A stretch of DNA of 64,000 bases from Nitrosopumilus sp. (GTDB lineage: Archaea; Thermoproteota; Nitrososphaeria; Nitrososphaerales; Nitrosopumilaceae): NCBI GenBank assembly GCA_965205425.1, contig CBDBGZ010000009.1, positions 704,001 through 768,000 of the forward strand. Reading direction: 5' to 3'. The notes beneath the pieces are model-generated. The model was not told where the DNA came from. It saw nothing but the letters and a program-made list of their open reading frames with translations, and made no database searches. Positions 47,867 to 52,122 of the stretch are shown here, one piece after another; position 1 is the stretch's first letter; each line of letters starts with the position of its first letter. The position numbers and the translations under genes are program-made.

Positions 47867-48619
47867 TTACTTGCTTCTTTGAATTGCTTTTGCTATTTTT
47901 TCGAGTTTTGTGAGACTTCCACCCTTTTCAAGGAAGGTTCCAATTACTAGAGCATCTGCTCCCGCTTTAACTAGACTTGCAGCAGTTTTTTCATCTTTGA
48001 TTCCACCACCAACAATCAAAAATCCATTAAATGCACGTCTTACGGTTTTTACCATTTCAGGCGTAATATTGGTTTTAGCACCAGATCCTGCTTCAAGATA
48101 GACAAATCTCATACCAAGAAATTGAGCTGCCAATGAATATGCTGCTGCGATTTTTGGTTTTTCAAATGGAATTCCTCTTGCTGAACCAACAAACCATGCA
48201 GATGTTCCATCTCCAATTACCAGATATGCTGTTGGAAGTGGTTCTAATCCAAATTTAAGGACACTAGGTGCCCCCAAAGCTTGTGCTTGGGTAATAAAAT
48301 ATGGATTTTCAGAATTCATTAGTGAACTAAACAATATAGCGTCAGCGTCAGGCACAACACCTGTGACATTGCCTGGGAATAGAATTATTGGAATTTTTAG
48401 ACCTTTTTTGATACCTTTAACTACTTGGGCCATCTCAATTTGATCAGTAGCGGATGAACCTCCAACTAAGATAGCTGATGCTCCAATCTTCTCAACATCT
48501 TTAGCAAGCTTGTTTGATGCTTCTAGATTTGATACTTCTGAGTCGATTAATACGAATAGTAATGCATTTTTCTTTTTTAATTCTGATTTTAGGAATGATT
48601 CTACTTTATCTCCAGCCAT
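47867..48619 (-). CDS. Geranylgeranylglyceryl phosphate synthase
   Basis: LVGGS, LFPGN, YLEAGSGA and VGGGIK motifs. Confidence 0.92.
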   Translation of the reverse strand: MAGDKVESFLKSELKKKNALLFVLIDSEVSNLEASNKLAKDVEKIGASAILVGGSSATDQIEMAQVVKGIKKGLKIPIILFPGNVTGVVPDADAILFSSLMNSENPYFITQAQALGAPSVLKFGLEPLPTAYLVIGDGTSAWFVGSARGIPFEKPKIAAAYSLAAQFLGMRFVYLEAGSGAKTNITPEMVKTVRRAFNGFLIVGGGIKDEKTAASLVKAGADALVIGTFLEKGGSLTKLEKIAKAIQRSK

Positions 48620-48683
48620 AAAGTGGGTTTGTGTATGTCTCTTTAAAGTTTAATTGGAATGCTGTATACAGATTTGTATAGTT

Positions 48684-49046
48684 ATGGATGAGTTAGAAGA
48701 ATCCAATTTTAACAACATTATACGAAAAATTATCAAAAAATCACTGTTTACAGAGCGACAAGTTGAAATTATTTTAAATCAAAAGGATCTTCTAGAATCT
48801 AATTTTTCTATAACTAAAGGTGCGTATTACAGGCAAGTTGGGCAATCTAGAGACAAATTAATTGGATTATTCTATTCAATCATACTTTTTCGTGGTCTAG
48901 GCATACTTTTGCCTGATGATATAGATGTGATATCAAAGCTTTCTGAACAGATTAGTGTGATTAATGAGAGTGATATTTTTCCTGAAAGGGAAGATGAAGT
49001 GATTAGTGTGGTAGATAGGCTCATCCGTCAGGCATGCAATATGTAA
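48684..49046 (+). CDS. Conserved small helical protein, possibly HTH-like (track start 48654; ATG at 48684 preferred)
   Basis: FTERQVEI...ITKGAYYRQ pattern; origin-proximal. Confidence 0.65.
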   Translation: MDELEESNFNNIIRKIIKKSLFTERQVEIILNQKDLLESNFSITKGAYYRQVGQSRDKLIGLFYSIILFRGLGILLPDDIDVISKLSEQISVINESDIFPEREDEVISVVDRLIRQACNM

Positions 49047-49606
49047 TAGATGTGATATGGTAGTTCGGTAACAAGGTAGAATGTGATAATTTGTGTGAGT
49101 TTGTTAATCTAAAGTGTGAATTATTGTTGTTCAATCACGATAAATCACGTCATAGGCATAGATGTTGTGATGTTAGTAGAAATTCCTGACCCTGAAGTGA
49201 TTTTAGGTGTGATTTTAGCATTTATTGTAGGAATTGTAGGTTTGTATGCATACTTCAAGATACGTCCATTTGTAAAAACTAGGAATGAGGTATTTGATGC
49301 ATCACAAGCAGAACGATTAGAATATTATGAAAGACAACTAATCGATATGAAAATACGCCTAGATGCCTTAGAAATTCAAGGAATTGAGCAAAAAGTAGAG
49401 GATCCCAATCTTGATCTAAAACAATTCTTAAAAAAGTTAGCAAAGAATGAAGAAAGACCTGTGGAGGTTGTTAACAAACCTGAAATTGTACCTGAAAAGG
49501 TGATTTCTACACCTAATATGCCTTCTATTATATCTACAAACCCTGTTGATTATGTGTTGCATCTAATCACAAACAAAGCTATGACATCACGTGACATACA
49601 AATCAC
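48927..49606. repeat. Dense GTGAT/ATCAC motif array overlapping two CDSs
   Basis: 16 exact copies counted in about 680 bp. Confidence 0.75.
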
Positions 49607-49748
49607 ATTAAAAAAGAGTAGAGAGCATACTTCACGCCTAATGAAAAAGATGTTTGAAGATGGATTTGTACAAAGAAATACCGAATCAAAACCATATACT
49701 TATTCAATTACTGAAAAAGGAATGGCAAAAGTAGAAGTAATCCAATAA
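49170..49748 (+). CDS. Membrane-anchored winged-helix DNA-binding protein (track start 49116; ATG at 49170 preferred)
   Basis: N-terminal TM helix, coiled coil, C-terminal TSRDIQ...SREHTSRLMKKM...GFV...YSITEKG wHTH. Confidence 0.75.
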   Translation: MLVEIPDPEVILGVILAFIVGIVGLYAYFKIRPFVKTRNEVFDASQAERLEYYERQLIDMKIRLDALEIQGIEQKVEDPNLDLKQFLKKLAKNEERPVEVVNKPEIVPEKVISTPNMPSIISTNPVDYVLHLITNKAMTSRDIQITLKKSREHTSRLMKKMFEDGFVQRNTESKPYTYSITEKGMAKVEVIQ

Positions 49749-49877
49749 TAAAATAGAATTTTTAGAGATAAATTTCAAATCTTTCCCTTAATTTTAGGGA
49801 AATTAGTCATATTTAGTAATGATAATAGAATTAAATAATTTATTAAATTATATATATTATTAAATTATAATAACAAT

Positions 49878-50039
49878 ATGTCAGTAAATGAGAATGAAGT
49901 ATTAGTGAAAATCACTTCTGCCGGAACAATTTCTATTCCAAAACAGTTTAGAAAGTATATGGACATCCAAAAAGGAGAATATGTTAAAGTAATTCTCGGA
50001 AAAGATCAATTATTGGTTAGAAAAGTTACTATTTCTTAA
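49878..50039 (+). CDS. AbrB/MazE/SpoVT-like small DNA-binding protein (53 aa, not in the ORF track)
   Basis: MSVNENEVLVKITSAGTISIPKQFRKYMDIQKGEYVKVILGKDQLLVRKVTIS. Confidence 0.8.
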   Translation: MSVNENEVLVKITSAGTISIPKQFRKYMDIQKGEYVKVILGKDQLLVRKVTIS

Positions 50040-50043
50040 TTGG

Positions 50044-50430
50044 TTATTGTTGTTTTTGAGGTATTTTGATAACTTGATATGTCCATTCTCTACCAGTTCT
50101 GGTTCTATTTACCCTACCTTTTGTAGAAAATCTTGATAGATATGTGGAGATTACACTAAGTTTAACAGGCTCATTATATTCATCTTCATATTTTTCTAGA
50201 ATGTTAGTTGATGTGAATTTTCCCATTGGAAAGAATTTATCCACAATATTCCAAATTTTAGAACCTACAGAATCCATGTTTGTAACTTCTTGTTCTTCTT
50301 CAATATTCATCAAGTCCATCATTTCAAAAATTTTGAGGATTTTGTCTCTTGTTACATTACCTTCTAATTTGATGTTATAACGAGCACCATCCGAGTCTTC
50401 CATGTCTATTCTAATCCGTTTTTTGGCCAT
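50044..50430 (-). CDS. Winged-helix domain protein divergent from cdc6
   Basis: C-terminal FTSTNI...LSVISTYLSRF...GRV...GREWTY wHTH pattern. Confidence 0.7.
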   Translation of the reverse strand: MAKKRIRIDMEDSDGARYNIKLEGNVTRDKILKIFEMMDLMNIEEEQEVTNMDSVGSKIWNIVDKFFPMGKFTSTNILEKYEDEYNEPVKLSVISTYLSRFSTKGRVNRTRTGREWTYQVIKIPQKQQ

Positions 50431-50449
50431 CTTTGAGATCTAACGGATC

Positions 50450-50913
50450 AAATGTTAACAGTTCAAATGATCCGCGAATATTTGTTAACTAAATGATTTG
50501 TTAATATTGACTGCCTAGCCCATGCCTAACCTATTTTTTGTTATTAACAATTAATTCATAATTAGCCCCCAAAATTAGGACTTTGTCATGACTGGAGTGG
50601 AAATAAAGGGGTTAGATTTAAGATATTCACAATGTTAACACTCATCTTAACGCCTGGAATGGAAATTAGGGGGTCAAAATGGGCTTTTCTAGGCTTTTCT
50701 TAACACCAATTTAACAAAAATGTTAACCCATAACAAACTACGACTAAACCCACACACCAATATTTCCACTCTATCTTTTTCTTTATTTTTTTAATAGAAA
50801 ATCTAAAACTAACTAAAAATAATTAATTACAAACTAAACTACTATTACTATTCTATTCTATACTCTCTTAATTTAGATATGATTGTGTTATTGTTGAGAG
50901 GAAACAAAGGTGT
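50450..50913. other. Probable chromosomal replication origin (oriC)
   Basis: ORB-like boxes at 50592-50611 (ctggagtggaaataaagggg), 50654-50673, inverted 50749-50771 and 50896-50914; AT-rich stretch at about 50772-50895; directly upstream of cdc6. Confidence 0.8.
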
Positions 50914-52122
50914 GTGAGTATGTCTGATCCAATTGATAGATTACTTGATGCAGCTGAATCAGGAAAATCGATAATAAAAAATCGAGATACTCTTCATTTT
51001 ACATATATTCCTGAAATTATATTTCATAGAAATTCTGAACAAGAACAAGTCACACAATCTCTATTACCAATCTTAAAACAATCCAGGCCATCAAATCTTC
51101 TAGTTTATGGAAAACCTGGTACTGGTAAAACTCTAGTTGTAAAAAAAGTAATTTTTAAAATTCAAGAAAGGGTAGAAAAATCAAATTTTCCAATTAAACT
51201 AATTTATTCAAATTCAAAAGAAGAGACAACACTTTATGGATTATTAGTCAGTTTAGGCAGGCAATTAGGCCTAAATGATAAGGAATTACCCACAACTGGG
51301 CTTGCAATTAGTGAAGTGTTTAAGAGACTACTTAACAAAATTGAGGAAGGAAAACTTAACGCAATTTTTGTAATTGATGAAATTGATTATCTGGCTCAAC
51401 TAGTAGTAAAAACAGGGAAGGATGTTTTATACCAACTAACTAGGGCAAATGAGCGTCTCAACCAAGGCTCATTAACTTTGGTTGGAATTTCAAATGATCT
51501 TACATTCAAAGAAAAACTAGATCCTAGAGTAATCAGTAGTCTGGGAGAAGAAGAGGTTGTCTTTACCAATTATGATGTTGAACAAATCAAAAAAATACTT
51601 GAAGAAAGAATCAATGAATCATTTATTGAAAATTCAGTAGAGGAACCGGCCCTAAATCTTATCGCTGCACTTGCTGGAGGAGAACACGGTGATGCTCGTC
51701 GGGCCATCGATTTACTTCGTGTAGCAGGAGAACTTGCTGAGCGACAACAATCCGATAAAGTCACGGCTGAAAATGTTCGAGAAGCCTCTCAAAAAATGGA
51801 AGAAAATAAAGAAGAAAAATCTCTCAAATCATTCCCACTACACGAAAAATTGGTACTTATTGCAATCATGAAGGCAAATGGTTCTTCTACTGGTGAAATC
51901 TACTCATCTTACAAAAATCTCTGTAAGGCAGTTGGGAAAGATGAGCTTACCCCAAGAAGAATCACACAAATGCTTAGTGAAATTGAATTATCTGGATTAA
52001 TCTCTGGAAGACTAATCCATCAAGGAATTCATGGTAGAACAAAAAAATTCAAACTTACAATATCATCTGAAATGATAAAAAAGACATTCCAAAATGATCT
52101 AACTTTGCAAGACATTGTCTAA
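50914..52122 (+). CDS. cdc6: Orc1/Cdc6 replication initiator
   Basis: YGKPGTGKT, IDEID and HGDARRAIDLLR motifs; C-terminal wHTH. Confidence 0.95.
   Translation: MSMSDPIDRLLDAAESGKSIIKNRDTLHFTYIPEIIFHRNSEQEQVTQSLLPILKQSRPSNLLVYGKPGTGKTLVVKKVIFKIQERVEKSNFPIKLIYSNSKEETTLYGLLVSLGRQLGLNDKELPTTGLAISEVFKRLLNKIEEGKLNAIFVIDEIDYLAQLVVKTGKDVLYQLTRANERLNQGSLTLVGISNDLTFKEKLDPRVISSLGEEEVVFTNYDVEQIKKILEERINESFIENSVEEPALNLIAALAGGEHGDARRAIDLLRVAGELAERQQSDKVTAENVREASQKMEENKEEKSLKSFPLHEKLVLIAIMKANGSSTGEIYSSYKNLCKAVGKDELTPRRITQMLSEIELSGLISGRLIHQGIHGRTKKFKLTISSEMIKKTFQNDLTLQDIV

Follow-up and report, generated by a model that had tools for sequence, protein, structure and literature searches.

Bacterial proteins that combine an HTH domain, a coiled coil and a membrane anchor position chromosome origins, as described in the accessible parts of the reports on RicO (bioRxiv 10.64898/2026.03.06.710092) and RocS (PMC11500499). 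The sites of RicO in Staphylococcus aureus, ricS, are sequence-specific and lie near the origin (nine 18-bp sites over 700 kb), and the anchor of RocS can be replaced by unrelated transmembrane domains, according to the same partial texts. Further related reading, likewise available in part, is PMC7617429.

Chromosome segregation in archaea outside the Sulfolobales and the halophiles is an open question, and most of the Nitrosopumilaceae searched have no ParA. The locus described here supplies a site, a candidate reader (TMwH), three residues of that reader and a link to the membrane, and it is conserved across much of the phylum. The literature search found no account of the array or of TMwH; subscription papers, such as the 2013 origin mapping of N. 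maritimus (Pelve), and supplements were outside its coverage and could mention the repeats. Worked out here are the code of the candidate reader, the evidence from natural variation and the occurrence outside the class.

The array and its neighbourhood

The window is the whole stretch of 64,000 nucleotides of Nitrosopumilus sp. DNA that was analysed. The features at the locus are as follows.

47867..48619, minus strand: PcrB-family (GGGP synthase) gene, divergently oriented to hyp120, with a 1125-aa ORF after it
48665..48680: palindrome TATACA-N4-TGTATA immediately before hyp120, the sole exact copy in the genome
48684..49046, plus strand: hyp120, 120 aa, conserved, all-helical, no Pfam family; its 3′ end bears four boxes
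48927..49606, both strands: GTGAT/ATCAC array, 16 boxes and GTGAC at 49591, from motif count, genome comparison and shuffles
49134..49171, plus strand: likely TMwH promoter, with TATA-like ATAAAT at 49140-49145, from conservation and the genome TATA-like peak
49167..49748, plus strand: TMwH gene, start GTG 49167 or ATG 49170; predicted membrane helix, coiled coil and winged helix
49878..50039, plus strand: AbrB/MazE-type gene, 53 aa, in Nitrosopumilaceae loci only and not in all of those
50044..50430, minus strand: wH128, 128 aa, conserved winged helix, between TMwH and the origin
50592..50919: predicted oriC, with ORB-like repeats at 50592, 50654 and 50893 and an inverted copy at 50748-50771
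50914..52122, plus strand: cdc6/orc1 initiator gene

The sequence-only reading had counted 16 copies of GTGAT or ATCAC in 680 bp where about 1–2 were expected. Every coordinate proved exact, with GTGAT at 48927, 48957, 48970, 48999, 49052, 49083, 49167, 49197, 49209 and 49500 and ATCAC at 49134, 49144, 49301, 49566, 49586 and 49602, and the genome-wide rate is 1.6 per 680 bp. As it had claimed, the array spans both coding sequences and the gap between them (8 boxes in the TMwH gene and 4 each in hyp120 and the gap) and differs in reading frame: the coding boxes, 12 of the 16, occupy all three codon frames, the deepest lying 435 bp inside the gene.

A genome-wide k-mer search showed that the array is the top GTGAT/ATCAC window of the 2.2 Mb genome. 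The runner-up windows (11, 9 and 9 copies) belong to one repeated segment, whose GTGATCAC palindromes are counted twice. With the refined pattern H-GTGAY-D, the array scores 16 and the next best window in the genome 8. Dinucleotide-shuffled versions of the 680-bp array, 2000 in number, had 2.5 copies on average and 9 at most. The word itself is not over-represented (genome-wide observed/expected 1.03). The array ranks 99th among all 5-mer clusters of the genome, so its function cannot be proved by enrichment alone; conservation does prove it. Many of the clusters ranked above it look like low-complexity or tandem repeats.

The segment with GTGATCAC palindromes and a 448-aa ORF occurs three times (G000:C8:85500-86100, C9:2100-2700 and C8:20000-20600). 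We take the ORF to be transposase-like, and two of the three copies adjoin an ORF that is presumably methyltransferase-like. The segment is either a mobile element or an assembly duplication; the contamination of the genome is given as 5.2%. A long gene-poor gap at G000:C5:53270-54060 contains 26 GTGA/TCAC words (4 expected), including four CTAGTCAAGCTCAC repeats; an integrated element may have its iteron origin there.

The box consensus from the pooled arrays is (T/C)GTGA(T>C)(A/G/T)T. A preceding G is depleted in arrays (8% vs 27% outside), a following C is rare, and GTGAC is the sole clearly enriched variant. Avoidance of GATC methylation was rejected as an explanation: GTGATC occurs at the background rate in arrays (16 vs 13.3), so it is merely not a favoured variant. 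Box spacing is irregular, and GTGAT lies mostly on the plus strand in the left half and mostly on the minus strand in the right half. The repeat search found no long repeat within the array, and no long palindromic repeat. Iterons are direct repeats of about 17–22 bp at regular spacing; the iteron likeness that had been suggested fails here on the irregular spacing and the lack of long in-phase repeats. An Rfam scan of 48000-51500 gave no match. A scan for sigma-70 promoters and terminators stayed at chance level, its model being of the bacterial type and wrong for archaea. In lineages without the array, the search for substitute motifs returned A/T-rich words only, none convincing.

Three boxes lie over the likely TMwH promoter: ATCAC at 49144 overlaps ATAAAT, a second ATCAC lies at 49134, and GTGAT at 49167 falls on the start codon. 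ATAAAT is 27–30 nt before the TMwH start, and the TATA-like peak of the genome is 28–32 nt before ATG. Because three boxes overlap this promoter, autorepression of TMwH is likely. The protein hyp120 is possibly a degenerate sigma70-region-4-like HTH; its model (pLDDT 72) had no Foldseek match at E≤0.001, only helical-hairpin matches (Z≤7). The palindrome TATACA-N4-TGTATA is likely hyp120's own operator. Of 95 loci from the whole phylum, 80 have it with at most 2 mismatches, a raw count with no chance background.

The repeats in the gap before cdc6 presumably resemble ORB, and from this likeness and from cdc6 we infer that the gap is the replication origin. The 1125-aa ORF beyond the PcrB-family gene is, we assume, the PolD large subunit, and the gene of the small subunit follows cdc6 in the gene order of the window. 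N. maritimus has a single mapped origin, according to the available part of a review (PMC4010727). GC skew did not locate the origin. The array had been placed about 1–1.5 kb from oriC; the closeness stands, and the distance to the first ORB-like repeat (50592) was measured as 1.0–1.7 kb. No box lies inside the predicted origin itself. In and beside the origin, at 50162-50726, TGTTAA/TTAACA occurs eleven times (0.64 expected) and is a third motif, perhaps for wH128.

Selection, conservation and range of the array

The array is a selected, conserved DNA element beside the predicted origin. In orthologues, the motif is kept at synonymous positions, as both codon shuffles and fixed rare codons showed. 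Synonymous-codon shuffling gave 93 boxes observed against 28.6 expected in hyp120 and 139 against 54.3 in TMwH (21 loci each), 12 against 7.6 in wH128 (20 loci), and 339 against 285 in long control ORFs. The repeated use of GTG Val codons had been pointed out, and at 48927 and 48957 GTG is kept in 79 of 79 orthologues; ATC at 49566 is kept in 80 of 80. In the genome, GTG makes up 10.4% of Val codons, and the figure for ATC is 16.9%. The other coding boxes are kept in 44–79 of the 80 Nitrosopumilaceae-type loci, and box 49500 is unconserved (4 of 78 orthologues). The 79 scorable loci of these 80 have 11–20 boxes each (0.5–2.6 expected); as these loci are related to one another, the counts are not independent trials but a sign of constraint when set against control genes.

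TMwH matches were found in 230 of 251 class genomes, and hyp120 profile matches in 114 of 301 phylum genomes. A set of 100 distant loci was picked by hand, with 31 of the 38 class-level hits and 20 of the 69 hits in other classes; L113, whose TMwH runs beyond the contig end, was left out, and our own locus was added. Within the order, 47 of 50 loci have a strong array, defined post hoc as a best 800-bp window with log p ≥ 4; outside the order, 35 of 50 do. Across the distant loci listed, the gene order hyp120-TMwH-wH128-cdc6 is seen again and again. Genome-wide searches with a three-box pattern matched the genome's own locus in four of five distant genomes (1/1, 3/3, 5/6 and 2/3 of the matches lay at the array; 0/1 in G114), and the motif searches indicated one array locus per genome and no regulon. 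L123, L118 and L115, from another class, have a second dense intergenic cluster, of 6–13 boxes, some 360–450 bp ahead of their hyp120 homologue. A taxon look-up of 10 representatives returned Nitrosocaldaceae as the only name; Bathyarchaeia among the relatives (Atlas neighbours at 0.85–0.86) are a lead only.

The array is linked to TMwH and to cdc6. The hyp120/TMwH module lies within 60 kb of cdc6 in all 9 measurable rearranged genomes, and on another contig in the tenth. When the module has parted from cdc6, the array stays with hyp120 and TMwH. In G160 and G129, it persists 41 and 59 kb from cdc6. The linkage of array and cdc6 could be synteny inertia.

TMwH, the candidate reader

TMwH has a short N-terminus, a predicted membrane helix at about residues 11–31, a variable linker and a C-terminal winged helix. 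Its model (pLDDT 85) shows a long helix (9–76), a low-confidence linker and the winged helix, for which the best matches among the families listed are MarR/PadR-like (Z 11.9, rmsd 1.9, 69 aligned) and generic. The predicted coiled coil (L51-Y54-L58-M61-L65-L68) is read from the heptad pattern and the long helix. An early hydrophobic helix occurs in 146 of 149 representatives, and in these 146 proteins a median of 8 and a maximum of 35 residues precede it. K/R residues around the helix number 0.05 before and 3.3 after it; since basic residues follow the helix and almost none precede it, the winged helix is predicted to be cytoplasmic, with no sensor domain outside. The Pfam/NCBIfam search of TMwH found no cyclic-nucleotide-binding domain, the region being the membrane helix and the long helix. 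Homodimer prediction scored 0.00 and gave no answer, which bears neither way on dimerisation.

The recognition helix carries the motif R152-E153-H154-x-x-R157. This R-E-H-x-x-R is invariant in 60 of 60 aligned TMwH sequences, and in 149 of 149 representatives selected with a profile that contained the motif. In CRP, RETVGR reads TGTGA through R180, E181 and R185, according to the accessible text of PMC10187061. Both proteins thus have R-E-x-x-x-R at the start of the recognition helix with equal spacing, and both sites share the TGTGA core. By this analogy, each TMwH winged helix very probably reads one (T/C)GTGAT box with R152, E153 and R157, as CRP reads TGTGA. The CRP code for TMwH is an analogy, given the weak similarity to the CRP-family protein Vfr (E 0.5) and the generic MarR-like fold.

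Among loci with canonical TMwH, 79 of 87 had a strong array; among those with altered TMwH (a changed wing, a lost anchor or a replaced R152), 3 of 13 did. This co-variation rests on two or three evolutionary events. Twelve of the 13 altered loci could be placed on the PolD tree and fall in two separate clades; the tree has four very long branches (L071, L078, L084 and L097), probably from non-matching segments. In L116 and L121, R152 is replaced, the hyp120 helix is kept and the array is absent, while the palindrome upstream of hyp120 remains (2–3 mismatches). In family f9, the hyp120 helix is changed as well as TMwH, and the array is lost. Family f11 has hyp120 in inverted orientation and its helix changed, yet in all 10 loci scored 7–14 boxes straddle TMwH and extend into the gene downstream of it. 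In family f6, 4 of 6 arrays are weak although TMwH is canonical. In L114, where a gene has been inserted in between, the array remained with hyp120 and lies about 1 kb ahead of the TMwH start. The TMwH membrane helix is missing from six loci outside the class, two of which retain an array. TMwH homologues without a membrane helix were seen in L111, L112, L116, L121, L122 and L128, one clade outside the class.

In family f10 (L131-L135, five genomes), the profile search did not find TMwH or hyp120, so the array-TMwH system is not universal. At the three cdc6 loci of f10 read upstream, TMwH, hyp120 and the array are all missing beside cdc6. In this family wH128 is oriented towards cdc6, elsewhere away from it. 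From these sequence comparisons, TMwH is a well-supported candidate and likely the reader of the array.

Proposed mechanism and known systems

We propose an origin-to-membrane tether that also regulates itself, with a rough probability of 0.5. Many TMwH proteins set in the membrane would grip the array and so tether the origin region to the membrane. The boxes would be single half-sites, irregularly spaced and in both orientations, with the grip coming from many anchored proteins on flexible linkers. Through the three boxes over its TATA box and start codon, TMwH would act as the repressor of its own gene and keep its abundance steady. The tethering may serve chromosome positioning and segregation, with SMC and without ParA, which is the least certain step. 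With a little less credence than this, we also consider that the locus may be an ancient, ParA-independent chromosome anchor common to ammonia-oxidising archaea and several other Thermoproteota lineages. In such an anchor, a single-pass membrane protein would grip a centromere-like array in its own gene beside oriC through a CRP-type code and tie the origin to the membrane.

The tether is favoured over a pure operator because boxes lie 400 bp inside the gene, the membrane anchor has no sensor and there is a single target locus. An extended operator alone is the main rival, though rather unlikely; in this reading TMwH is a membrane-bound one-component autorepressor (perhaps also of hyp120) and proximity to the origin is incidental or a matter of gene dosage. 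Within the family, boxes do lie on the TATA-like element and the start codon, several distant loci concentrate them upstream of hyp120 and TMwH, and an array that follows the genes rather than cdc6 would also be expected of an operator. This leaves the 12 coding boxes, up to 435 bp inside the gene and at a cost in codon choice, and the f11 boxes that enter the next downstream gene; moreover, there is no outside sensor domain and no second array in the genome, and a regulator that targets only itself has no output. The notion that the array simply reflects amino-acid content (Val-Ile, Ile-Thr) or Shine-Dalgarno-like sequence, or arose by chance, is refuted. Many boxes do fall on Val-Ile or Ile-Thr pairs, and GTGAT is part of the archaeal SD complement, but the codon shuffles and fixed rare codons contradict this origin, boxes are also intergenic and on both strands, and G is depleted before the box, opposite to SD.

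A role in initiation control, in which TMwH keeps the DNA flanking the origin at the membrane so that initiation is licensed, timed or sequestered, and does not serve segregation, is improbable. It would suit an array that normally lies about 1–1.7 kb from ORB-like repeats and, throughout the phylum, among cdc6 and the genes of the two PolD subunits, and archaea have accessory origin binders such as UBP, as the available part of PMC12141716 describes; against it stand the box-free origin and the arrays kept 41 and 59 kb from cdc6. We give still less weight to another reader of the boxes, be it hyp120, wH128, Cdc6 or an unlinked factor. The L114 array that stayed beside hyp120, the distant loci with clusters on both sides of hyp120, and the loss of the array with the changed hyp120 helix in f9 point that way. 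They are opposed by hyp120's own palindrome, which outlasts the array in L116/L121, by f11, which keeps the array despite its altered hyp120, and by f10, which keeps wH128 and cdc6 with no array adjoining. Even if the array were an operator, the locus would still supply the DNA motif bound by an origin-linked protein that is near-universal and uncharacterised, in archaea that are very abundant in the sea.

Returning to the tether, the multivalent protein-binding array near oriC that the sequence-only reading had put forward appears well founded, given the conservation at synonymous positions. Its comparison with parS or a centromere survives only for a putative origin-to-membrane anchor site overlapping a promoter, and falls for ParABS, as the genome has no ParA and the locus no ParB gene. 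ParABS combines a ParA ATPase with a ParB that binds a 16-bp palindromic parS, which were not found here; a site close to oriC is shared. In the genome (99.6% complete), the sole AAA_31 match covers profile positions 2–40 and lies in a 370-aa ORF, which we take to resemble Mrp/NBP35. A full-length ParA-type match occurs in 2 of 36 family genomes. SMC is present in the genome. Eight ParB_N matches were seen in G000 (C4, C5, C7, C8 and C9), several in near-identical 270-aa frames; none of the eight lies in the window or is linked to the origin.

ToxR, TcpP and CadC have an N-terminal DNA-binding domain, a single membrane helix and a sensor outside. They share the single membrane helix and cytoplasmic winged helix with TMwH, which has only about 8 residues outside and no extracytoplasmic sensor domain. 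CRP has a cyclic-nucleotide domain, TGTGA-N6-TCACA palindromes and a regulon, and the TMwH system has none of the three; the inverted spacing of 9 that TGTGA-N6-TCACA needs occurs twice among the pair spacings listed.

In SegAB/segS of the Sulfolobales, short repeated sites adjoin the gene of the binder near the origin, as here; as far as the available text describes it, SegB is a ribbon-helix-helix protein working with a ParA-type SegA, unlike the winged-helix TMwH, which has no ParA-type gene at its locus (PMC12139799). AspA of plasmid pNOB8 is an archaeal winged-helix centromere binder with its site upstream of its own gene. In the accessible part of that report, AspA is a soluble protein that binds a single 23-bp palindrome and spreads, and it depends on ParB and ParA; the TMwH array is unlike it on each point (PMC5120986). 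AspA is among the TMwH fold matches, at ranks 10 and 13, no better than the generic MarR/ArsR rows, and an aspA-parB-parA cassette with a single 23-bp palindrome is absent at the locus. By their defining features, the array and TMwH fall outside ParABS, SegAB, AspA, CRP, iteron and ToxR-type systems.

RicO (bioRxiv 10.64898/2026.03.06.710092), RocS (PMC11500499) and RacA have an HTH, a coiled coil and a membrane anchor in the parts of the accounts available, and TMwH is predicted to have the same. Their DNA-binding domain is N-terminal and their anchor C-terminal, whereas TMwH is reversed, with a true N-terminal membrane helix. Their fold is MerR-type, and the best matches of TMwH are MarR/PadR-like, where families not listed may also match. 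The RicO sites, in the same partial text, are 18 bp over 700 kb; here, boxes of 5–8 bp lie within 0.7 kb over the reader's own gene. If the tether is true, it would correspond in archaea to RicO/RocS and supply the segregation device that is missing in the lineages concerned. By analogy, and not by demonstrated homology, the array and TMwH would be most like RicO and RocS in their way of working.
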